Below are positions 127 through 10,009 of a stretch of DNA of 26,955 bases, piece by piece; within the stretch, counting starts at the first letter, position 1; each line of letters starts with the position of its first letter. Under the pieces are notes generated by a model. The model ran no database searches and was not told the origin of the DNA. It worked only from the letters and a program-made list of their open reading frames with translations. Where the stretch lies: positions 1 through 26,955 of the IMG/VR virus record IMGVR_UViG_3300013104_000003. One strand, given 5' to 3'. This DNA is from a virus (Duplodnaviria > Heunggongvirae > Uroviricota > Caudoviricetes). The position numbers and the translations under genes were made by a program.

Positions 127-1620
127 CTATGTGTTTTCGTTATTTGATGTTGAGGAATCACCTGAGCTACCATCCGCATTACCTGTTCCTGATGGAAGAC
201 CGCTTTCAAGCCCGCTTCCGCTCGCTGATGTGTCAGGTGAAAGAATCTTTGTAAGATCTTCTGTAGACAAATCAAGGTCAACACGATAAGGGATATCTGC
301 TTGTTGCATAATCCAATTGATGACTTCAGGAACTTTAGGAAGATTACCTGTTGCAGAGACACGCTGAATAAATTTACCAAGCTCATCAAGAGACTCAGAA
401 CTTACAGAACCATAATCGAGATAAGGAAGAACATCGGTATCCCACCCATTCAACTCAAATAGTTGTTTTATAAGATCATGATTAAGCTGTGCTTTGATTT
501 CATCCAATTTAGATTGAATGGCCATCTCAACAACACTAATCTTAGATTCTGCAAGTGAGAAGCTACCGCTACCATTGCTGCCAAGGGAAAGAAAATCCGC
601 GAACAACGCCGTCAAAATCTCAGAGGTGTATCTGTTGATAATAGCGTTAGTGTCGTAAGACTTCTGACCGGTGATGGATTCGAATTTAAGTTCGAACATC
701 TTGTTCCCATCTTGGTCAAGAACTAGTGGAAGAATTACACCAGATTGTTTGGCCTGATGCATATTAGCCAAGATTTTTTTGTATTCTTCGAAAGCTGCTT
801 TCTTATCTTCACTAGCATCGTTTGTCATATATTCTGGGGGAATATATAGAACTTTGAATCCATTAGAATCTTGAGCAACAGCAATAGCCTCACTTTCCTG
901 ATAGGCTTGCTTATATTTCCAAGCTTGCCATGCACCATTCAGTGGAGAAGTTCCTACGGGACTATTTTTCAAGGGATTGTTGCGGAAGAGTAGAAACTTT
1001 TTCCTAGGGATTTTCTTAAGAGTTGTTTCATTATCTGCTGTTTGAACAAAATCCCACCCCATATATGAGGCGTTACCGGGATTGCAAACTCGCTGGTAGA
1101 AACCACCAAGATCACGTCCTTTGTTAGTCCAATACCAACCTTCCACAGTATCTTGCGCTCGAATTGGGAGTTTCTTAATTCCAATCAAACCATCGTCATA
1201 CTTACTTCCTTTGTCTTTATTCCTAAACCTGTAAACCTTTTCTGTCACGGCGAAACCGTAGCGATTAAAGCTTACTGCTTGTTTGATAAAGCTCTGGAAG
1301 TCGTGTTCCATATCCCCTATGCATTGGCGTACAAAGTTAGCTTTATCTTTTAGCTGTTCTTCGTAACCCTCGGGGATCTTAACAGTCCACGGAACCCTAG
1401 CTATCATCATTTCTACAAGCTCAAGGGCCGGAGCAATTGCTCCGTCTTTTGCCATACGTTTGTAGGTGTTGATAGCTTCAGGCCAACGAAGTTCTCGACT
1501 ACATTCCTCGATTACTTGGCCACCTAAAGTTAGGAGTCCCGGACTGCCCATCTCACCCATTGTCAAGGCTGGAGTATCATTTTCACCGGCCTCTAGGGAG
1601 ACATCTGTTGTATCTACCAT
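127..1620 (-). CDS. Portal protein
   Basis: 497 aa immediately downstream of terL; RELRWP..INTYKRM, SFNRYGFAVTEKVY, FLLFR..PLKNSPVGTSPL and FLSLG..GSFSLAE motifs typical of DUF935-like myovirus portals; Ser/Gly-rich tail. Confidence 0.85.
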   Translation of the reverse strand: MVDTTDVSLEAGENDTPALTMGEMGSPGLLTLGGQVIEECSRELRWPEAINTYKRMAKDGAIAPALELVEMMIARVPWTVKIPEGYEEQLKDKANFVRQCIGDMEHDFQSFIKQAVSFNRYGFAVTEKVYRFRNKDKGSKYDDGLIGIKKLPIRAQDTVEGWYWTNKGRDLGGFYQRVCNPGNASYMGWDFVQTADNETTLKKIPRKKFLLFRNNPLKNSPVGTSPLNGAWQAWKYKQAYQESEAIAVAQDSNGFKVLYIPPEYMTNDASEDKKAAFEEYKKILANMHQAKQSGVILPLVLDQDGNKMFELKFESITGQKSYDTNAIINRYTSEILTALFADFLSLGSNGSGSFSLAESKISVVEMAIQSKLDEIKAQLNHDLIKQLFELNGWDTDVLPYLDYGSVSSESLDELGKFIQRVSATGNLPKVPEVINWIMQQADIPYRVDLDLSTEDLTKILSPDTSASGSGLESGLPSGTGNADGSSGDSSTSNNENT

Positions 1621-1628
1621 TGTCTCTC

Positions 1629-3101
1629 CTATTGGGTAAATGGATTAGTTCGTGTTAGATTTGCGGACAACAGTCCAGAAGTGAAGTTTGGAATAATTTG
1701 TTTTTGTGCTAATATCATAAAGCCATCACTGCACACGTCCACAAGATCATCATGACCATTTGCGCCAGACTTTCTTTCTCCCGTGAATGTCTCCAATTCT
1801 TTGTAAAAGAATCCAAGCTCACTGAAAACCTTGTTCTCAAAGTCTGTCCCACAATTCTTCAAGATTCTAATCCCCCCATTCATACACATAGACGCGAAGG
1901 GTCTGAATCTATCAACTTTACTAGAATTCGCACGCATAGTTCTTACAAAGAATCCTTCTGCTGAGATTTCTCTTGCAAGCATTGTTGTTGCAGCTTTCGA
2001 TGCGGGGTTAGGATCAAGTGGTAAAACAATATCTACTTTGCTCCCATCCCTTTGTGCGTTCTCTACAATGAAAGCTTTCCAATCACCAAAACGAATTCGT
2101 GTCCGTTGAACATCGTGGATGAAATAAGTACCATCCTTCATTTTTGAAATCTTAATGCAAGCCGTGTAATCTGGATCATATGAGCTATCAGATGACTTCA
2201 GAGTGCCAGCGACATCATATGCCCTAACAGTCTTAACAATATCACTCCAAGCCGGCTCTTGATCTTCTTCTTTGAACCAGTGGCGTTTTATAAGACCTTG
2301 TCCATCTGGCCTAGCCTCCCAATTCCCGTATAAAAGAATTTCTTTCTCGATACGCGGCAAACCTTGAAGAAAAGCAATATAGCTTTTCTCAATATGTGGG
2401 TTATCGTATACCGATGCGGAAATAAAACGGAAAGAAAGAGGAGTAAGATCGGGGTATCGCTCTTCTAATTCTTCTTTTGTATCTGCCCAAAACATTTCAT
2501 TATCTAGGCGAACAAACCAGCGAATTATACCCTGTTTTGCAGGGTCAGGACGACCAAATAATTCATGACCTTCTGGGTAGAGATACCAATCAACATACTT
2601 CCTAACCCAACTATCTGGGTCTGGGTTCATTGTAGCGCGCATGTTTGGCTTCATATTAGCCTTTGTACGCAAACGAGAAAGAATGTAGTTGAACTGGGAT
2701 TCTTCAAACTGACAAAGTTCCTCCATTACGCAACTGGAGATTTGAGCACCTTGAAAGTTATCTGTGTCATCCACACGTTCGAAATGAGAAAAGAAAATTT
2801 CTGCATCTGAGCTTGTAATAATCTTTAAATCTTTAATTCTTACTCTACAGTCTGGATCTAACAATTTATAAAGTTGTTTTGCTTCGTCCCAAACAGCACC
2901 CGGCTTAAGTAGCATCGGTGTAGTTCGACGTAATGTTAGTCCTCTATAAAGGGGATCGTGCATATATTTGGCGTGATGGGCAAGTCCTGCCCAAGTTTTT
3001 CCTCCGCCAGCCTGACCCCCGTAGAAACAGATGTCCACCCAATCAGGCGTGGACAAAAACATCGCTTGTGGTTTGCTGGCAGGCGCGACTACATTTGTCA
3101 A
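1629..3101 (-). CDS. terL: Terminase large subunit
   Basis: Walker A YGGQAGGGKT, Walker B-like VMEEL, coupling motif ATMNP, C-terminal nuclease RAYDVAG...HDDLVD; TTG start with GAGG RBS. Confidence 0.95.
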   Translation of the reverse strand: MTNVVAPASKPQAMFLSTPDWVDICFYGGQAGGGKTWAGLAHHAKYMHDPLYRGLTLRRTTPMLLKPGAVWDEAKQLYKLLDPDCRVRIKDLKIITSSDAEIFFSHFERVDDTDNFQGAQISSCVMEELCQFEESQFNYILSRLRTKANMKPNMRATMNPDPDSWVRKYVDWYLYPEGHELFGRPDPAKQGIIRWFVRLDNEMFWADTKEELEERYPDLTPLSFRFISASVYDNPHIEKSYIAFLQGLPRIEKEILLYGNWEARPDGQGLIKRHWFKEEDQEPAWSDIVKTVRAYDVAGTLKSSDSSYDPDYTACIKISKMKDGTYFIHDVQRTRIRFGDWKAFIVENAQRDGSKVDIVLPLDPNPASKAATTMLAREISAEGFFVRTMRANSSKVDRFRPFASMCMNGGIRILKNCGTDFENKVFSELGFFYKELETFTGERKSGANGHDDLVDVCSDGFMILAQKQIIPNFTSGLLSANLTRTNPFTQ

Positions 3102-4218
3102 AGACGCTTACCTCAATTTGTTCTATATTGGTTTTAACTTCCAACCACCTCTCTTTGTTTTCGAGAGCGTTAGATACAGAATTTCTGGCCACTCCGTAAA
3201 GATTTGCTAGAAACTTTTGTTCTACAAAACCAGATCGCCACAATATAAGAGCTTCTGTTACATCAACCAGAGAAAATTTTGCTTTGCTGTTATACTTATG
3301 CTTTTCTACATTAAGTAACCTTAAAGTGGTTTGAATTTTATCTCTGTTTTCTTCTCTATTAGACATCCAATCAGCGATATATTCTTGTTCAATATCCTTT
3401 AAAGTCTTATGTAAAGATTTTTCAATTTCTTCAATGTAATAGTCTGAATTATTATTCAAGGCTTTTACAATAAAATCTGGATTTTGTGAGGGATCAAAAT
3501 CATCCGAAAATCTTTCAATCATTGTTTTGAAGTAAGTCCCGCTAAAATAAAGGTCTGAGACTTTTTGTATTTTTGTTGAAAAATCTTTCGGGCCGGTCTT
3601 ATCAGAGCGTTGCCAGAAGTCTTTATATACATGAAAACTCAACCAATCTTTCAACTCACCTTTGAATCGAAAGGCTGGAAAAACTGAACCTATATTTATA
3701 AGAAATGGCTGAATGTCGTCTTGTTTCCTGTTGAATTGAGACATATATTTAGTATTACTCAACTTCCAGTTAATAAGACGTTTTCTGCGTTCTGTTTCCT
3801 TCCGGGTTGCTTTAATCCTTTCCATAACTTCTGGAGGATGTGTCACACCGAACATGGGGTTGTTTTCACCAGAGCATTGTACACTAACAGCTTTAGAATA
3901 CTCTTCACGTAGCTTAGAATAAATTTTAGAATTAATACCTACGTGACTATTGCCTGCGATATCATTTGTCCAACGTGAACTCATGATATGTGCAGCTCTC
4001 ATCAAACTGATGTTTTGAGGATTAGCTATCCACAAGAGCATGTGGGCGATGAAGTGCTCTCTTCCAGAGAAGAGTACAAAATTAGAAGCTTCATTTGTTC
4101 CTCCAATACATACTGGGACAATGTGATGAGCTTCTGTGTAGAAATCTATTTTTGATTTATCAAGACCACGAACTTTAGCTTTTGCTACAAGATCATTATA
4201 AATTTTACTGTAATTCAA
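3043..4218 (-). CDS. Free-standing HNH homing endonuclease with NUMOD3 motif (Mob-like)
   Basis: EAHHIVPVCIGGTNEASNFVLFSGREHFIAHMLLW HNH core; SGENNPMFGVTH NUMOD3-like repeat; overlaps the terL 5' end by 59 nt. Confidence 0.85.
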   Translation of the reverse strand: MNYSKIYNDLVAKAKVRGLDKSKIDFYTEAHHIVPVCIGGTNEASNFVLFSGREHFIAHMLLWIANPQNISLMRAAHIMSSRWTNDIAGNSHVGINSKIYSKLREEYSKAVSVQCSGENNPMFGVTHPPEVMERIKATRKETERRKRLINWKLSNTKYMSQFNRKQDDIQPFLINIGSVFPAFRFKGELKDWLSFHVYKDFWQRSDKTGPKDFSTKIQKVSDLYFSGTYFKTMIERFSDDFDPSQNPDFIVKALNNNSDYYIEEIEKSLHKTLKDIEQEYIADWMSNREENRDKIQTTLRLLNVEKHKYNSKAKFSLVDVTEALILWRSGFVEQKFLANLYGVARNSVSNALENKERWLEVKTNIEQIEVSVFDKCSRACQQTTSDVFVHA

Positions 4219-4249
4219 AACTGAATATCTCCGATAAGATTTAATTAGG

Positions 4250-4305
4250 TGAGGCTAGCTGATTGTATCGGCAATCAGCAGGGCTTGCAATCCCGTTCGC
4301 TCTCA
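4250..4305 (-). promoter_or_regulatory. Structured RNA leader (three-way junction) upstream of the HNH gene
   Basis: GCTGATTG/CAATCAGC 8-bp stem (4258-4279), GGG..GCAA..CCC hairpin (4281-4294), closed by TGAG(A)GC/GCCTCA. Confidence 0.5.
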
Positions 4306-4315
4306 TTACACTTCT

Positions 4316-4684
4316 TTATTCGTCTTCTTCCGAAGACTCATCATTCTTACCACTTTCACAAGCAGCAAGATATTGCTTAATCATTTTAACTTTGTCGCGC
4401 CCTTTAACACCTTTCTGTGCTACCAGTGGACGCATCTCCTCAATTGGAAGAGATTCCAGATATTCTTTAGTGTACTGAATATCAATAGGAACAACTTTTA
4501 CACCAATTTCATCTTCAAGGAAATCCTCAGTCTCGATGACCATAGTGATGCTGTGAGGAAATTTCATAAAAGGGTTGTTGGTTTGATCTTGAACTGCACC
4601 TTTTCCAGCATACTTAATAACATTCTGAATAAAGCTCAGACCGATTGAATCTGTACCTGTGATAAACAACTTATACTTATTCAC
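4316..4684 (-). CDS. Hypothetical protein with a C-terminal HeH/LEM-like helical motif
   Basis: 122-aa ORF with AGGAG RBS and its own promoter; YTKEYLESLPIEEMRPLVAQKGVKGRDKVKMIKQYL helix-extended-helix pattern; acidic tail. Confidence 0.75.
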   Translation of the reverse strand: MNKYKLFITGTDSIGLSFIQNVIKYAGKGAVQDQTNNPFMKFPHSITMVIETEDFLEDEIGVKVVPIDIQYTKEYLESLPIEEMRPLVAQKGVKGRDKVKMIKQYLAACESGKNDESSEEDE

Positions 4685-4721
4685 TTAATTCTCCTAAATA
4701 GTTTATTGCTTCAATAAGAGA

Positions 4722-4751
4722 ACTATAAGGCATACACCCCAATTCTGTCAA
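4722..4751 (-). promoter_or_regulatory. Sigma70-like promoter TTGACA-N18-TATAGT
   Basis: Consensus -35 and near-consensus -10, upstream of the 4316..4684/HNH/terL/portal operon. Confidence 0.7.
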
Positions 4752-4784
4752 CTATTAATTTCAATTATTTAATAGATTTAACAA

Positions 4785-4808
4785 ATTGCCCTATATTTCA
4801 AGGGCAAT
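4785..4808 (-). terminator. Probable intrinsic terminator hairpin after the fibre gene
   Basis: ATTGCCCT/AGGGCAAT 8-bp inverted repeat 12 nt after the stop codon, followed by TTGTT; weak U-tract. Confidence 0.5.
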
Positions 4809-4820
4809 CTATAAAGCTAC

Positions 4821-6830
4821 TTAACCAAGCAATACTTCCTGTGCAGATTGGTACGTAAAAACTGGAGTCCCTGTGGTATTTACAGTACGCAATCTTACGT
4901 ACTTACCAGCAGGAATACACCCTGTCAGGTTGGCACTGTTGAGAGTTGCTAAGTTCAGAACACCACCAGCAGATGCACCAGATGTCTGTACAGTTGTGAC
5001 ACCAGTTGTAAACCCAACTTCATTAGCATATTCAAGAACAACGCGACCAGCTTGTCCAGCAAGTAGTGCTGCTGTACAACTAATATCAACAGAATAAGCT
5101 ACCAATGCATCTTGTGTAGCGCTAATTTGAAAAGCTGTATTCAAACTACGTGTAGGATTGGTAAAACTTCTGTTAGTGCCTGCTGTTACGCGACCTTGTG
5201 CATCAGTGGTAATTGTACCATTGTAACTCCCAGCAGTACCAACGTTAGGCATTGAAATAGTGCCCGTTGTTGTAATTGTACCACCACTCAAGCCTGTTCC
5301 TGCTGTAATACTTGTTACCGTACCGCCACTATTGGCATAGTTTGGAACATTAAGAACACCCGTTGTACTGTTATATGTTGCAGCTCCACTTGTCCCTGTG
5401 GTTGTCAAACTAATAGCTGTACGAGCACCCGCTTGGGTGATATAGCTATTAGGGTTTGTTGTTCCGTTATATGGTGTGTAACCTAATGCAGTAGTAATTT
5501 GACCACTTGTAATGGTTGTCAGATATCCTGCTGGGTTTGATGCAAGCGGATAGGCATCTATAATCCCGTAACCTGATAAAGTGGTTGGTGTAGTTGTAAT
5601 CGTTGACCAAGCTTGTGTATGTGCTGATGGTGTAAAAGCAGATGGTTTATTCAATACCTGAGATACACCAGATACTGAGTTCCAATCAGAATTCACTTGT
5701 GCAGCAGGAATACTTGGAAATGTTGCTAAAGATCCGTCACCACGAAGGTACTGTAAAGTTGTACCTGTTGGAGTATTGTACTTAGCATCTAAAGCAGTCT
5801 GCAACCCAATAACATCAGAAATACTGTGCGTATGACCTGACGGTGGGAAGCTTGTTGGTTTGTTAGTAAGATCTGTGTAGCTTCCACTGAACAGTGTAGG
5901 CTTGTTTAAAATCTGACTTACACCACTTACACTGTTCCAATCGCTATTAACTTGGGCTGGAATTACAACATCCCCAAACTGCCCATTAACTGTCAGCACA
6001 CCATCTTGAATGGCTGTCTTGGGAAGTTTATTTGGCGCTGAAAGACTTACGAGTTTATCGCGGATAGCTGCTGCTGTTACTTCAGGGGACAAAGGAAGAC
6101 TTACAAACTCTCCTCGTTGTGTCATCACACTAAAGTAAGGAATACCGCTACTATTACCTTTGATAGCCATTGTATTGGCACGAATTTCAAAGGTGAGCAT
6201 CACACCAGCTGAAAGTGGTACGGGGCTATCTTTAAAATCTACTACGTTATCACCAACAACAAAGTTCATACCCCCTGTTCCTGTAGACCACACAGATTTA
6301 CTAGGAAGATATTTCAATGCTACGTTCACATCAGATTTTGTAATCTTGATTCTAACGTTAGACATTGGGGCAGATGCACGAAATGTAATACTGTTAGTTC
6401 TTGCGTTAAGTGTTGTTGTATAATTGAAAACAAGCGGAGAGGATGTAAGATTTACGCTGTCATCAGCCTGAGCCGTAAACATCCATTCGGCTTCATTGAG
6501 CTGAAAGATTGTAGGAGATAGAGATGCACTTGTACGTGGAACTCCATAATCTATAAGCTGATACATTGCATTATAGAGGTTATTGCGAATACCGACAAAG
6601 CCTGAAGATTCAGACATGGTGATAGCATCACCAAAATCAATAGAGCCAGATTCTACAGAGAACCCACCGGGGGCTAGAAGAGTTCCGTCAGGAAGCATCC
6701 TCATCCCTGTGCCCATCAACTGACCATCAGTATCCTTAACGAAGACTTCTCTCACAGGCATCTCTGCCATCAAATCTTCTACAGATTCTCCACTGGAATT
6801 ATTACCGGGGAAATACGGATGTACAGGCAT
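4821..6830 (-). CDS. Fibre-like virion protein (tail/head fibre or whisker)
   Basis: 669 aa, Thr/Gly/Ser-rich; fibre motifs VLTVNGQFGDVV, QVNSDWN..SG..QILNKP (x2), HTHSISDVIGLQTALDAK, PTTLSGYGIID, ITTALGYTPY, GTVTSITAGTGLSGGTIT; compact C-terminal domain ending YVRLRT..GTP...QEVLL. Confidence 0.75.
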   Translation of the reverse strand: MPVHPYFPGNNSSGESVEDLMAEMPVREVFVKDTDGQLMGTGMRMLPDGTLLAPGGFSVESGSIDFGDAITMSESSGFVGIRNNLYNAMYQLIDYGVPRTSASLSPTIFQLNEAEWMFTAQADDSVNLTSSPLVFNYTTTLNARTNSITFRASAPMSNVRIKITKSDVNVALKYLPSKSVWSTGTGGMNFVVGDNVVDFKDSPVPLSAGVMLTFEIRANTMAIKGNSSGIPYFSVMTQRGEFVSLPLSPEVTAAAIRDKLVSLSAPNKLPKTAIQDGVLTVNGQFGDVVIPAQVNSDWNSVSGVSQILNKPTLFSGSYTDLTNKPTSFPPSGHTHSISDVIGLQTALDAKYNTPTGTTLQYLRGDGSLATFPSIPAAQVNSDWNSVSGVSQVLNKPSAFTPSAHTQAWSTITTTPTTLSGYGIIDAYPLASNPAGYLTTITSGQITTALGYTPYNGTTNPNSYITQAGARTAISLTTTGTSGAATYNSTTGVLNVPNYANSGGTVTSITAGTGLSGGTITTTGTISMPNVGTAGSYNGTITTDAQGRVTAGTNRSFTNPTRSLNTAFQISATQDALVAYSVDISCTAALLAGQAGRVVLEYANEVGFTTGVTTVQTSGASAGGVLNLATLNSANLTGCIPAGKYVRLRTVNTTGTPVFTYQSAQEVLLG
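5643..5957 (-). repeat. Internal 20-codon repeat (5898-5957 and 5643-5702)
   Basis: AQVNSDWNSVSGVSQ(I/V)LNKP; 19/20 aa identical but only 42/60 nt identical. Confidence 0.9.
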
Positions 6831-7096
6831 TATGAATTATCCTGTACGCAAATTTTACCGTTTCCACGAATCCAGCAACCAACTTCCCCAGCATCCACTA
6901 CGTAGAATTGATAGGGTTGAATATAAACGCCATCAGTAGATGTGGATAGGGGCTGTAATGCACTTATTTGCACGTATAGTGCGCTAGTGCTCTTATTTTG
7001 AATAATAATAGAAGTTCCCACTGTGATACCGGAAGAAGTATACACATCGGTAAAGGAACCATTCACTGAAGATATATCAGGAATCGTATTTGCCAC
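6830..7096 (-). CDS. Small beta-rich protein, probable fibre-associated virion protein
   Basis: 88 aa, GTG start, stop overlaps the fibre ATG (translational coupling); IIIQNKS..LYVQ pattern. Confidence 0.7.
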   Translation of the reverse strand: MANTIPDISSVNGSFTDVYTSSGITVGTSIIIQNKSTSALYVQISALQPLSTSTDGVYIQPYQFYVVDAGEVGCWIRGNGKICVQDNS

Positions 7097-7100
7097 TTTA

Positions 7101-7440
7101 ACAATCCTATTTTATTTTTATATTAGGGATTGTCTTGTTCTGAGGAATTATAGCCTGTAGACAGACAACACAGGCTTTTAGTGGGGCAGCCTCGTCTGCT
7201 TTGAAGAAATCAATTATACTTCATTAAATAATTGACTATAGTATAGTTGACTGATGCCACGCTTACCTGCATTCAGTCGTGGAGTCCATAGTGACTCCCT
7301 CTCCGCTCACTAGTCTTTCCTAGCAGTCATTTATTCGCTATCCGCCAGAATAGCTGGGTGAGAACTAGGCAGTTCCCGATACCAAGCCGAAGCCTGATTC
7401 TATGTCACCTAAACACAACATTTAGGTTGAGATGTTTAGA
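7101..7440 (-). ncRNA. Putative structured non-coding RNA (C)
   Basis: About 11 back-to-back hairpins including a C(UUCG)G tetraloop (7383-7396); stem irregularities read as G-U wobbles on the minus strand; no ORF. Confidence 0.6.
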
Positions 7441-7454
7441 TAATGTAACAAATG

Positions 7455-7859
7455 TTACTCATCATCTTCGTCTGGAGTAAACACCAAACTCAGACGTGGA
7501 CGCAATTCACTTTTAATCTCTTCAGGAGTCTGCTCTTCAGGCTCACGCTTACCTTCCATACGAGCCTTGAAGTTAGAGATTTCATCGGCGTTTGCAGCCT
7601 TCTCAACACTTACAATGGAATTGATAACCCATTTAGCACTTGCTACAGAATCAGCGTTCACTTCTTCATTTTTTAGGCTTTTATCAATAAGCGCAAGGGC
7701 AATATCTTCACGAGTACGAAGCTTATCTGCAAGTTCACGAAGTTGAGACTTTTTAATACGAACCTTTGAATTTCCTTTGGTGTTACGGTTACTACGTTCA
7801 CCTTGGAACTGTGTTTCTTTCTGCTTTGCAGTTTGTTTATCTTTTGTCAAACCTGCCAT
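7455..7859 (-). CDS. Putative terminase small subunit
   Basis: 134 aa; basic N-terminus with QFQGERSNRNTKG resembling the F..G.SGNP.G motif of TerS proteins; helical core; RPRLSL-acidic C-terminus; upstream of terL on the same strand. Confidence 0.55.
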   Translation of the reverse strand: MAGLTKDKQTAKQKETQFQGERSNRNTKGNSKVRIKKSQLRELADKLRTREDIALALIDKSLKNEEVNADSVASAKWVINSIVSVEKAANADEISNFKARMEGKREPEEQTPEEIKSELRPRLSLVFTPDEDDE

Positions 7860-7869
7860 AATTATGCAC

Positions 7870-8211
7870 CTTTATGCAAAAATTCATAATTTAATATTTC
7901 TTAAATACACTCTAATACAGAATATCTGTGTTCACTACGTGAGGAATGTATTTAAGAAAGCTCACCTGAAATCGTTAGGAGAGGAACGACCAGATGGGCA
8001 AATAACCAAACAACCCGAGGAGAGAGAGAGGAAGAAAGATTGTTTGGTTGAGGAGCACATACCCTATGTTATCGGAGGATTTTACTTATGGTATGTGTGG
8101 AGAAATTGGTATTCCCTTGTCTCACCCTACAGCAACAAACACATGGAAATTGCTGGGGGATATTTGCTACGCAAATGCACATCACCAAGGGAAATCTTTT
8201 TAACACCAAAC
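7870..8211 (-). ncRNA. Putative structured RNA/leader (B) with CU-rich loops
   Basis: Five helical domains with 8-12 bp stems; loops and linkers carry UCC/UCCUC; starts just downstream of a consensus promoter. Confidence 0.6.
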
Positions 8212-8217
8212 AGAGAT

Positions 8218-8247
8218 AGTATAACATCCATATATCTATTTTGTCAA
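8218..8247 (-). promoter_or_regulatory. Sigma70-like promoter TTGACA-N18-TATACT with extended -10 (TG)
   Basis: Read directly: ttgacaaaatagatatatggatgttatact. Confidence 0.8.
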
Positions 8248-8274
8248 TAGATATTCACAATTGAATCAATATTT

Positions 8275-8805
8275 CTAATCAAAATACGAATATTCTTCTT
8301 GAAGCTCTGATAATTGATCCATAACTTGATTGTAGCGCATCTTAGACATAAAGTCGTCTTGACAAGAATTGTACTTTTTGTTGTTGCAAGACTTGCAAAG
8401 CAACTGAAGATTTTTCACAGAATTTGAAGAAATTATTCCTACTGGTCGGATATGATCAATTTCGAAGGCTACATCATCAAAAGATACAAAACATGCTGCG
8501 CATTCATTGCTCTGAATTTCTAACAGATATCGAATGTCTTCTGGTTTGAAGTTTTCAATTTCTTCATGTCCTTGTTTTGAAAATCTAGCTTTTGCAAAAT
8601 AATTCCGCTTCTTGATCCGTTCGTCAAAATTATCTTCCGTCAGGTAAGAATTTCTTTCTTCATGCCATTCTCGAAGTCTTTTACTACGTTCGATAGATTT
8701 TGTATCGCTTTTAAACTCTTCGTTATATTCAGAGATACAGTCTTTACATCGTCCGCTGTTTGTGTGCTCTGAATAGTGACCTTTACTGCATTCTTTTAGT
8801 TCCAC
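8275..8805 (-). CDS. HNH endonuclease (Zn-binding, McrA/gp74-like)
   Basis: CAAC...EIDHIRPV...NSVKNLQLLCKSCNNKK; N-terminal C..GH...RC..C finger; GTG start with AGGTG RBS. Confidence 0.85.
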   Translation of the reverse strand: MELKECSKGHYSEHTNSGRCKDCISEYNEEFKSDTKSIERSKRLREWHEERNSYLTEDNFDERIKKRNYFAKARFSKQGHEEIENFKPEDIRYLLEIQSNECAACFVSFDDVAFEIDHIRPVGIISSNSVKNLQLLCKSCNNKKYNSCQDDFMSKMRYNQVMDQLSELQEEYSYFD

Positions 8806-8842
8806 ACTTCACCTATTTTAAATTATTGGATAGAATAGTTAT

Positions 8843-8872
8843 AAAATAACATGTAAAGTGAGAATATGTCAA
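8843..8872 (-). promoter_or_regulatory. Sigma70-like promoter TTGACA-N18-TATTTT (TG-extended)
   Basis: Duplicate of the 8218-8247 promoter; weaker -10. Confidence 0.5.
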
Positions 8873-8879
8873 TAGATAT

Positions 8880-9113
8880 TTACAAATCCCAAGAACTTTC
8901 TAACCCTTCCATCATTTTATAAAATTCATTATCAATGTAGCCATACCAAATCTTTTTTATGAAGATACAAACCTCACCTGTTGGGTGATGTGGGTCTATC
9001 TCAATATCAGAAATTTTACATTGATACTTTTTAGAAATAAATATGATTTCTTTATGGAAGTCTTGCCTCACCCTGTACCTATCATAGTCATAAGGATCTA
9101 TGTATTTGTTCAT
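8880..9113 (-). CDS. Hypothetical protein
   Basis: 77-aa ORF, AGGT RBS, fills the gap between tract A and the HNH gene. Confidence 0.65.
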   Translation of the reverse strand: MNKYIDPYDYDRYRVRQDFHKEIIFISKKYQCKISDIEIDPHHPTGEVCIFIKKIWYGYIDNEFYKMMEGLESSWDL

Positions 9114-9149
9114 TTCTTTAATTACCTATTATTTACTAATATTTAGATT

Positions 9150-9625
9150 TACACTTCCAACTGAGTTCAGATAAGAAACTTCAGATAAAGAAAAGCCTTA
9201 CCCAGCCATACAGATTTAACAATCTGCCTAAGACTGAGCACTGCTCCTTATCTGATAGCCTTATCTGCCTCTATCCGTAAAGATAGTTTCTTCCAACTTG
9301 AGACGAGATTAAGAGAATGACTTTTCAATCATTCTACGGTCTACACGGATCACATAGCCGCCTTCAGGACAATGACACTAATAACGCATTGTCTCACCAC
9401 ATAGCATATCGCACAGAGTTATTAGCTCTGTCAGGGAGGTAGTGGTTTTCAGAATACCTTGTTGACTTTCCCATCACTCACAGTCGTCAACTTATTCAGA
9501 TTGTTGCTGCCATCTCGTATAGGAAGCTTTAGCCACCACACTAACCGACCAACAATCTATATCTACTGATTCACCGTAGCCGCTAGAAATCTCGAATGTC
9601 GTTGCCGTTAGATGAGATTTCAATA
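9150..9625 (-). ncRNA. Putative large multi-domain structured RNA (A)
   Basis: At least 9 helices plus long-range 7-bp complementarities; GAAA tetraloop and G-U wobbles on the minus strand; own promoter directly upstream; no ORF. Confidence 0.65.
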
Positions 9626-9631
9626 AGGGGG

Positions 9632-9659
9632 ATTATACAGCATTATTTTCAGAATGCAA
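9632..9659 (-). promoter_or_regulatory. Sigma70-like promoter TTGCAT-N16-TATAAT
   Basis: Perfect -10; predicted start at the 5' edge of tract A. Confidence 0.7.
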
Positions 9660-9711
9660 TACTAAGATTAAAATAAAATGGCTTTATTGTTTTCTGTTCC
9701 CTTCCAACAAT

Positions 9712-9739
9712 AGTTTACAGTATTTTTCAAGGATGTCAA
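9712..9739 (-). promoter_or_regulatory. Sigma70-like promoter TTGACA-N16-TAAACT
   Basis: Consensus -35; tandem with the 9632-9659 promoter. Confidence 0.55.
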
Positions 9740-9797
9740 GCTTTATTTACACCCTCCCACAACATTATTTTATATTCCAAACAAATCTATTCACCGC

Positions 9798-9826
9798 TTG
9801 CAATGCATCCCCAACAGTGCTATCCT
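9798..9826 (+). promoter_or_regulatory. Sigma70-like early promoter TTGCAA-N17-TATCCT (TG-extended)
   Basis: Sits ahead of the first plus-strand gene; divergent from the minus-strand promoters. Confidence 0.65.
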
Positions 9827-9853
9827 TTGTACAACAAATAGGGGATGCCTCAA

Positions 9854-10009
9854 ATGCCCATCATCCACCTAGACACCTACCGTCTCCTGAAACAAATCCT
9901 TGAACAAGCAGATAAGGTTGTGATAGTGTCGGTGAACACAGAGGATGGGAAGCAAATGACATACATGTATGTGAAACGTAAGCAAATTGAGAAGGGAGAG
10001 AAGAGATGA
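9854..10009 (+). CDS. Hypothetical protein (51 aa)
   Basis: AGGGG RBS; MPIIHLDTYRLLKQILEQADKVVIVSVNTEDGKQMTYMYVKRKQIEKGEKR; ATGA overlap with the next ORF. Confidence 0.6.
   Translation: MPIIHLDTYRLLKQILEQADKVVIVSVNTEDGKQMTYMYVKRKQIEKGEKR

Follow-up and report, generated by a model that had tools for sequence, protein, structure and literature searches.

The window analysed here, 26,955 nt in length, is the first part of a 90,955-bp IMG/VR phage record bearing terminal repeats (IMGVR_UViG_3300013104_000003), whose source sample is a rhizosphere metagenome. It contains a locus in which three non-coding tracts, referred to as A, B, and C, are real, conserved, folded RNAs that fall outside the catalogued families, and comparison with related phages directly establishes their existence as conserved structures, their strand, their boundaries, and their synteny. 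As for their role, the reading that we favour, and to which we give about an even chance on the basis of sequence features, is that they are stable products processed from a tRNA-type island and that they exert their action at translation initiation.

The minus strand carries every gene across 127-9113, in the order (from 9113 down to 127) 77-aa open reading frame (ORF), HNH endonuclease, 134-aa ORF, 88-aa ORF, 669-aa fibre-like protein, 122-aa ORF, 391-aa homing endonuclease, TerL, and portal. On the same strand, the locus runs from a sigma-70-like promoter (9739-9712) through tract A, the 77-aa ORF, a promoter (8872-8843), the HNH gene, another promoter (8247-8218), tract B, and the 134-aa ORF to tract C, and the non-coding stretches measure 358 nt (7097-7454), 415 nt (7860-8274), and ~590 nt (9114 to ~9705). 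An earlier sequence-only reading of this DNA had described the same layout of promoters, RNAs, 77-aa ORF, and HNH gene, and the gene map agrees with it. Its estimate of about 1.15 kb of non-coding sequence in 2.5 kb was right in that the sequence is non-coding and structured, the actual total being slightly larger. Two details of that reading need correction: the genome is not otherwise gap-free, and RNA C does not directly precede the fibre gene. Further ORF-free gaps of 414-781 nt are present in the same genome (G000) at 27111-27891, 28552-28965, and 55436-56117, none with an Rfam match at E≤0.1, and the 88-aa gene (6830-7096) intervenes between RNA C and the fibre gene, 7097-7245 being a separate leader.

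Minus-strand folds of the three tracts, when compared with dinucleotide shuffles, give z = -3.4, -4.5, and -2.7, but structured-RNA status was decided less by these scores than by compensatory base-pair changes in related phages. The comparison drew on ~70 related loci (designated by L numbers), retrieved with the 134-aa protein from IMG/VR and JGI metagenomes, and all genome counts refer to 29 near-complete related phage genomes. Compensatory changes above those of slid or shuffled controls, the general criterion for a conserved structured RNA, were found in RNA C, in the B2 element of RNA B, and in RNA A, and more weakly in the B1 module. The three large structured RNAs proposed beforehand are thus conserved with covariation, and comparison of the relatives also bears out a recurrent RNA locus that includes the 134-aa gene.

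RNA C (7243-7405, minus strand; 96.2 bits) has six hairpins, including a UUCG hairpin and, at its end, a nested one; this design was first seen by side-by-side reading of the gaps 3' of the 134-aa gene. Its covariance model (R1) matches 48 loci, on the gene strand throughout and directly 3' of the 134-aa gene, apart from L049, where it lies 1.6 kb downstream; 24 of the 29 genomes have exactly one copy. Standard pairs make up 90.7% of cells (slid controls, 33-41%), and 36 of 41 pairs have changed on both sides. Outside the helices, conservation extends to the loops CCUAG, UCUGGCGR, and GGAAAGA, to a GYGGAGA junction, and to UG in the loop of helix H5. The CCUAG and UCUGGCGR loops are complementary to each other, and a kissing contact between them is possible. 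The GYGGAGA junction occurs in 30 of 35 full-length copies, and the invariant UG of the H5 loop is read as AUG, UUG, or CUG, so that junction and UG together look like a ribosome-binding site. In eight loci the 3' half of RNA C has given way to a tRNA-Met. A hairpin typical of its helix H4, GAUGGAAAGACAUC, recurs just upstream of B2 in L033 (2690-2720), L049, and L081.

RNA B consists of a small module, B1, the B2 element, and a long hairpin, hp4. B2 (7956-8105, minus strand) comprises hp0 and hairpins with pyrimidine loops of the type CCUCUCCU, of which two are clear in the window and three in most relatives. Its model (R2) matches 53 loci, the window copy scoring 28.3 bits (E 5e-5), and the element is present in at least 22 of the 29 genomes. 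In the alignment, pairing holds in 93.5% of cells (slid controls, 35-44%), and double changes are seen in 37 of 37 pairs; the hp1-3 loops contain CUCC in 45, 46, and 50 of 50 sequences, respectively, and are 71-88% pyrimidine. One B2 pair is U-G in 30 of 50 sequences, and such frequent U-G pairs indicate that the transcribed strand is the gene (minus) strand, on which the loops are CU-rich and not GGA-rich. A GGA-loop sponge of the CsrB/RsmZ type, with B2 on the plus strand, was rejected because the U-G/G-U pairs are valid on the minus strand only, which is also the strand of the adjacent genes and promoters.

Between B2 and the 134-aa gene lies hp4 (7897-7959, minus strand; UUUCUUAAAU...AUUUAAGAAA), with 16 outer pairs and at most one mismatch; it is a candidate RNase III site, and ~30 relatives have an equivalent element. 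On the other side of B2, the B1 module (8106-8196, minus strand) starts with AAAAGAUUU, followed by a helix around a hairpin with the loop UUUCCAUGUGUUUG and then by UAGGGUGAGA. Its support is weaker, with 20 pairs, 7 of them compensatory (5 sequences), and in L021, L026, and L043 it is instead attached to RNA C as the 5' domain.

RNA A has a multi-domain core of ~440 nt (9121-9557, minus strand), the 3' domain of which (9156-9311) was modelled as R3 (169 bits), and a nhmmer search with 9121-9557 gave strong matches in eight additional contigs. The RNAalifold structure, derived from a plain, unfitted MAFFT alignment with a mean identity of 79%, has 127 pairs, 97.4% of them standard, and 38 compensatory pairs, as against 2-7 when partners were slid and 19 in shuffles. 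The predicted pairs include 203 G-U cells, the alifold energy is -122 kcal/mol for the sense strand versus -68 kcal/mol for the antisense strand, and the alignment contains no conserved reading frame. The invariant ACUACCUCCCU is single-stranded and lies in a predicted junction. Upstream of the core, a 5' extension (9558-9705, minus strand), which includes a hairpin with UCUAACGGCAACGACAUU, is shared with L084 and L023 alone, according to the alignment. RNA A is an accessory element, present in just 5-6 of the 29 genomes (BLAST and model R3), and shows 77-82% identity in comparisons of phages with only 47-56% identity in the 134-aa protein, a pattern suggesting that it is under strong constraint, is exchanged among phages, or both. 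A scan of bacterial genomes with a 15-mer of RNA A returned chance matches alone, RNA A being in none of them. RNA A may be a new member of the large ornate RNAs and might self-assemble in the manner of ROOL and GOLLD.

These pairing patterns bear on the view that the tracts have no RNA function and are either DNA-level signals (pac, origin, or terminal-repeat) or decayed remnants of tRNA or protein genes. The tracts do lie near the packaging genes, and relatives have tRNAs at the same positions where this phage has none. However, many of the compensatory changes involve G-U, which would be an A-C mismatch on the other strand and is meaningless in duplex DNA; no tRNA-like match appears even at E≤10; tblastn finds no trace of the relatives' genes in the tracts; and RNA A is ~80% identical where the neighbouring protein is ~50% identical. 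We therefore regard this view as very improbable. Pseudogene remnants in particular were rejected since tblastn with all ORFs of the related loci left the tracts blank, and the short ORFs on both strands of the three tracts, e.g., 7777-8250 on the plus strand, have no protein-family match.

Regarding known RNA families, Rfam 15 has none that reaches gathering score, and a threshold of E≤10 over 6800-10000, the interval to which the following model searches also refer, brings up no relevant match. Membership in GOLLD, ROOL, OLE, or raiA was rejected, none being found at gathering score or at E≤10. A group I intron (RF00028) was likewise rejected, with no match at E≤10 and with genes beside each tract that vary among relatives; in the corresponding control, true group I introns were found in L005 and L010 at 68-76 bits. 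ARAGORN detects zero tRNAs in the window and in the entire 90,955-bp genome, and the tRNA covariance model (RF00005) none at E≤10, while both do detect tRNAs at equivalent sites in relatives. Finally, paralogy among the three RNAs was rejected, as R1, R2, and R3 each match once per genome and the internal repeats are short motifs only.

The setting of these RNAs emerges from the relatives, dozens of uncultured soil phages, whose synteny is RNA A, variable cargo, tRNAs, B2 with hp4, 134-aa gene, RNA C, and late genes; B2, the 134-aa gene, and RNA C follow one another in strict order in more than 20 genomes. At the positions of tracts B and C, the relatives contain tRNA genes plus extra non-coding sequence, with 1-7 tRNA genes around the 134-aa gene as compared with zero in the 91-kb genome, and the tRNA-cluster setting suspected earlier is therefore correct as to position. 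Of 44 distinct loci, 12 have B2 starting 1 nt past a tRNA CCA end and 15 have it starting no more than 10 nt from one, and the tRNA species involved vary. In addition, several modules open with AAAGAAU(U), and the slots they occupy differ from phage to phage; modules appear to be exchanged at these junctions. A ~120-nt module starting AAAAGAUUUGYAGCACUUGUCAAAA was seen in L002 (4500-4640) and L004 (5394-5530), 5' of the 134-aa gene in one and 3' in the other. The upstream gaps of L002 (4160-4380) and L008 (4240-4450) share another conserved non-coding module (GUCAGAAUGCGAACUACCCG ... CAGUCAAAGCUCUCUCCUACUAAAAUCUUUGAUAUGA), which is not in the window and which implies that the island has more RNA families than A, B, and C. 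A tRNA-like element with a canonical T-arm (GGUUCGAUUCCAAC), not called by ARAGORN, lies between hp4 and the 134-aa gene in L008 (4830-4960; also in L032 and L025), and may be a tRNA with a long insertion.

Beyond these metagenomic relatives, 50,697 phage records were searched with 6800-10000 by megablast and blastn, and cultured phages with the 134-aa protein by tblastn, all without a match. The nearest cultured phages are the Pseudomonas phages phiPMW, vB_PpS_SYP, and vB_PsaM_M1, with ~50% portal identity, and neither B2 nor C was found in them (covariance model search with filters off, phiPMW tRNA-to-TerL region). One member of the group, L232 (GCA_052274385.1 contig, 83.8 kb), is filed in a metagenome-assembled genome labelled Pseudomonas sp., a weak hint of the host that is consistent with the Pseudomonas-infecting nearest cultured phages.

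In the reading that we favour, the stretch would be the RNA island of an uncultured rhizosphere phage of ~90 kb, corresponding to the tRNA region of its relatives. It encodes at least three independent families of structured RNA on the minus strand, namely A (~440 nt), B (B1, B2, and the long hairpin), and C (~160 nt). Early or middle promoters of the sigma-70 type would transcribe these RNAs within long precursors, which in the relatives would also contain tRNAs. The precursor would then be cut at tRNA ends, at the AAAGAAU(U) junctions in an RNase E-like manner, and at hp4 in an RNase III-like manner, giving rise to stable RNAs; it is the abutment on tRNA ends, the modular shuffling, and the long hairpin that suggest such processing. 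An action on translation initiation is suggested by the conserved motifs, because single-stranded elements would mimic both partners of this step. The CCUCUCCU loops of B2 and the ACCUCC of RNA A resemble the anti-Shine-Dalgarno (anti-SD) tail of 16S rRNA, while GGAGA followed by NUG in a loop of RNA C resembles a ribosome-binding site. The RNAs could act by titrating the Shine-Dalgarno (SD) sequences of mRNAs, or a factor that recognises SD or anti-SD elements (bS21, S1, or the 30S subunit), and the HNH homing-endonuclease insertion would take no part.

The phage's own genes use AGGAG-type SDs, with GGAG in 47 of 134, and the B2 loops are complementary to them. A precedent is offered by OLE RNA, which has an anti-SD/SD mimic that is bound by bS21 (PMC12054373). 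Among the three roles envisaged by the sequence-only reading (packaging, HNH guidance, and control of host translation), translation control gives the best sequence fit, with CCUCUCC in B2, ACCUCC in A, and GGAGA then NUG in C. Pairing of the B2 loops with the GGAGA of RNA C is not claimed, no covariation supporting it. A more elaborate proposal, to which we assign about one chance in four, is that of an RNA-only toolkit mimicking both SD partners, with anti-SD decoys (B2 loops and RNA A junction) and a ribosome-binding-site decoy (RNA C) that would issue from a tRNA-type operon and either re-programme 30S initiation or capture bS21 or S1, RNA A perhaps being ornate as well.

The main rival, possible yet clearly less probable than translation control by stable RNAs, takes the tracts as cis-acting untranslated regions (UTRs). 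B2 with hp4 would then be the 5' leader of the 134-aa gene, i.e., a translational enhancer or a Rho- or S1-dependent attenuator operating via the CU-rich loops, C its 3' UTR, serving as stabiliser, terminator, or control of read-through into the late genes, and A the leader of the cargo that follows. The geometry suits this view: RNA C begins 0-60 nt past the stop codon in nearly all loci and ends as a hairpin followed by an AU-rich AAUUAUUUUAUA tail right before the late genes, B2 with hp4 ends 40-150 nt ahead of the start codon in most loci, and the 134-aa gene has a weak SD whereas the other phage genes have AGGAG. It is harder to reconcile with the five loci in which another gene stands between B2 and the 134-aa gene (L012, L015, L021, L034, and L081), with the displaced RNA C of L049, 1.6 kb downstream, and with B1 and other modules that switch between the 5' and 3' sides. 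Moreover, the genes after RNA A are unrelated between phages, B2 adjoins tRNA 3' ends as a processed unit would, and both C, with its six helices and possible kissing loop, and A, with 127 pairs, are far more complex than an ordinary terminator or leader.

Several points weigh against stable RNAs acting on translation initiation. L036 and L047 have GUGGUGA in RNA C yet unchanged B2 loops, and several genomes retain B2 together with the 5' half of RNA C alone, which implies that the three RNAs need not act together. The CU-rich loops could be binding sites for Rho or S1, and the positions of B2 and C are exactly those expected of a 5' and a 3' UTR of the 134-aa gene, which leaves room for a role entirely in cis. 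The covariation counts for B2 and RNA C rest on model-fitted alignments. Finally, no direct sign of transcription or processing was found: no RNA library is listed as containing this phage, and short RNA A-like contigs (150-570 nt, 90-95% like 9333-9493), which come from one metatranscriptome and from three runs presumed to be RNA, are too weak to count.

The 134-aa gene (7455-7859, minus strand), labelled terS in the earlier description, encodes a protein with a basic N-terminus, an acidic tail, and no known family. The N-terminus has an invariant arginine/lysine-rich segment, SNRN..GNSKVRI. No Pfam, PHROG, or PDB-profile match was obtained, and the AlphaFold2 model (pLDDT 64) has no Foldseek match at E≤0.001. 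A language-model search gave one weak match, to DUF5681-containing clusters, whereas the ESM Atlas and a search of 5.8 billion proteins returned only entries named hypothetical protein; the family itself amounts to more than 380 protein clusters, every one annotated as hypothetical. The small-terminase label thus lacks family support by sequence or fold. The gene is 2-4 genes apart from TerL, heads a module of 122-aa gene, TerL, and portal, and has a weak SD. In L003 and L007, relatives without the fibre module, the 122-aa gene (4316-4684 in the window) is directly upstream of TerL. Judged by position, the 122-aa gene has no weaker a claim to be the small terminase than the 134-aa gene; neither has a family match.

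This protein is central to another alternative, in which the RNAs would form a ribonucleoprotein with it, or, if it is the small terminase, a packaging particle loosely like that of the phi29 packaging RNA (pRNA). The strict-order linkage of B2, 134-aa gene, and C in more than 20 genomes speaks for such a partnership, as do the invariant basic N-terminus and the place of the gene at the head of the packaging module; its weak structural neighbours are RNA-binding helical ribosomal proteins, at scores that are not significant. We nevertheless consider it unlikely, because the protein carries no TerS or RNA-binding family signal, its AlphaFold model is poor, the 122-aa gene immediately before TerL is at least an equal TerS candidate by position, and the protein persists in genomes where RNA A or the 3' half of RNA C is missing. 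Over 6800-10000, the Rfam model of the phi29-type pRNA gives no match at E≤10.

The HNH gene (8275-8805, minus strand; PF01844, 1e-9) encodes a free-standing homing endonuclease of 176 aa and is flanked by duplicated promoter sequence. Copy 1, before the HNH gene (8843-8886, minus strand), contains the 18/20-nt repeat AAUAUCUAUUGACA, and copy 2, before RNA B (8218-8261, minus strand), reads TTGACA, 18 nt, TATACT, with TG (11 of 12 matches). The direct repeat, 18 of 20 nt at 8867-8886 and 8242-8261, is accompanied by similar -10 regions and brackets the gene. The promoter before RNA A (9712-9739, minus strand) reads TTGACA, 16 nt, TAAACT, and has 10 of 12 matches, being recognised by consensus only. 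The promoters noted earlier are therefore confirmed as consensus matches at their sites, two of which share the repeat, but the overall scan is at chance level, with 11 promoters found versus 11.8 expected. Between RNA A and B2, the relatives have an HNH gene, a NUMOD4-HNH gene, a GIY-YIG/T5orf172 gene, a CapR-domain protein, or small ORFs only.

The duplicated promoter around the cassette indicates an inserted mobile gene; the HNH gene is a mobile homing-endonuclease insertion and not a partner of the RNAs, and the promoter was duplicated by, or together with, the cassette. These observations dispose of the suggestion that the RNAs guide or regulate the nuclease in the style of HEARO or omega RNAs. 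Adjacency of the two in this single genome is its one recommendation, and we hold it to be the least probable of all the alternatives considered, contradicted by distribution: relatives that retain the RNAs have unrelated endonucleases in its place or none, duplicated promoter sequence flanks the cassette, the 176-aa EndoVII/HNH protein of homing type has no RuvC or IscB architecture, and no HEARO or IscB-type RNA match was found. Membership of the RNAs in the HEARO or IscB-TnpB omega RNA groups was rejected on the same grounds, namely no model match, a homing-type HNH, and persistence of the RNAs without the HNH gene.

The remaining features of the locus can be described briefly. The 77-aa ORF (8880-9113, minus strand) belongs to phrog_1541, with no assigned function, and the 88-aa gene (6830-7096, minus strand), of phrog_4770, is the first of the fibre module. 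Its conserved leader/promoter region (7097-7245, minus strand) is separate from RNA C: 17 loci have it next to the 88-aa homologue, and its L009 copy sits 3.2 kb from the 134-aa gene. A hairpin immediately after the stop codon of the 134-aa gene (7409-7439, minus strand; CUAAACAU...GUGUUUAG) is also present in L005. In L005, too, a group I intron (9744-10007; Rfam, 75.8 bits) splits TerL, and the downstream exon matches the C-terminus of the window TerL; in the window, the 391-aa homing endonuclease (3043-4218) adjoins the TerL start.

Among known systems, the tRNA cluster of phage T4 contains species 1 and 2 (RNA C and D), which are small, stable, structured RNAs of unknown function situated among tRNA genes. 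They are co-transcribed with the tRNAs and released by tRNA-processing nucleases, and the region is rich in homing endonucleases. The locus described here is alike, by comparison of descriptions only, in having structured RNAs in a phage tRNA-type region with homing endonucleases. It differs from T4 in that the RNAs persist without tRNA genes, are larger (150-440 nt), present SD- and anti-SD-like motifs, and include two that bracket a conserved protein gene. As for repeated loop motifs, staphylococcal RNAIII and the Rsa small RNAs use UCCC loop motifs to pair with SD regions, and the GGA loops of CsrB and RsmZ titrate a protein. B2 shares with them the repetition of one short motif in several hairpin loops; unlike them, it is phage-encoded and its motif is CUCUCC, the GGA reading requiring the opposite strand, which is disfavoured by the U-G pairs.

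RNA A resembles GOLLD and ROOL, large ornate RNAs reported to form cages by cryo-EM (PMC12286853), in being large (~440 nt), highly conserved, multi-domain, patchily distributed, and located in a phage genome beside a tRNA-type region, although it is shorter and matches neither Rfam model at E≤10. With OLE (PMC12054373), the RNAs share the presentation of a copy of the 16S anti-SD (CCUCCU in OLE) and of an SD-like partner by non-coding RNA. In OLE, these motifs pair in one helix of one bacterial RNA, whereas here they are divided among RNAs, with anti-SD-like motifs in hairpin loops of B2 and a junction of RNA A, and the SD-like one on RNA C. A catalogue of structured RNA candidates mined from IMG/VR lists 8,495 unnamed elements of 29-151 nt, with no names or functions (PMC10690425); it uses the same data source and type of evidence, and single hairpins of the RNAs described here may be among its candidates.

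Phage non-coding RNAs with strong covariation and no family are rare, and large ones rarer; three or four families of this sort occur together at this locus, clearly delimited, known in dozens of natural variants, and accompanied by a conserved protein gene. RNA A is an added candidate for the small set of large RNAs whose function is open (GOLLD, ROOL, and OLE), and the repeated anti-SD-like loops raise the possibility that a virus might disturb translation initiation by RNA instead of protein. More generally, the tRNA regions of phages can be reservoirs of other structured RNAs that outlast the loss of the tRNAs. No named description of RNAs A, B, or C was found in the literature searched, and they have no Rfam family. 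As a kind, functionally unassigned structured RNAs from the tRNA regions of phages are already known; what appears to be new are these families, their SD- and anti-SD-like motifs, and the bracketing of a conserved protein gene by B2 and C.

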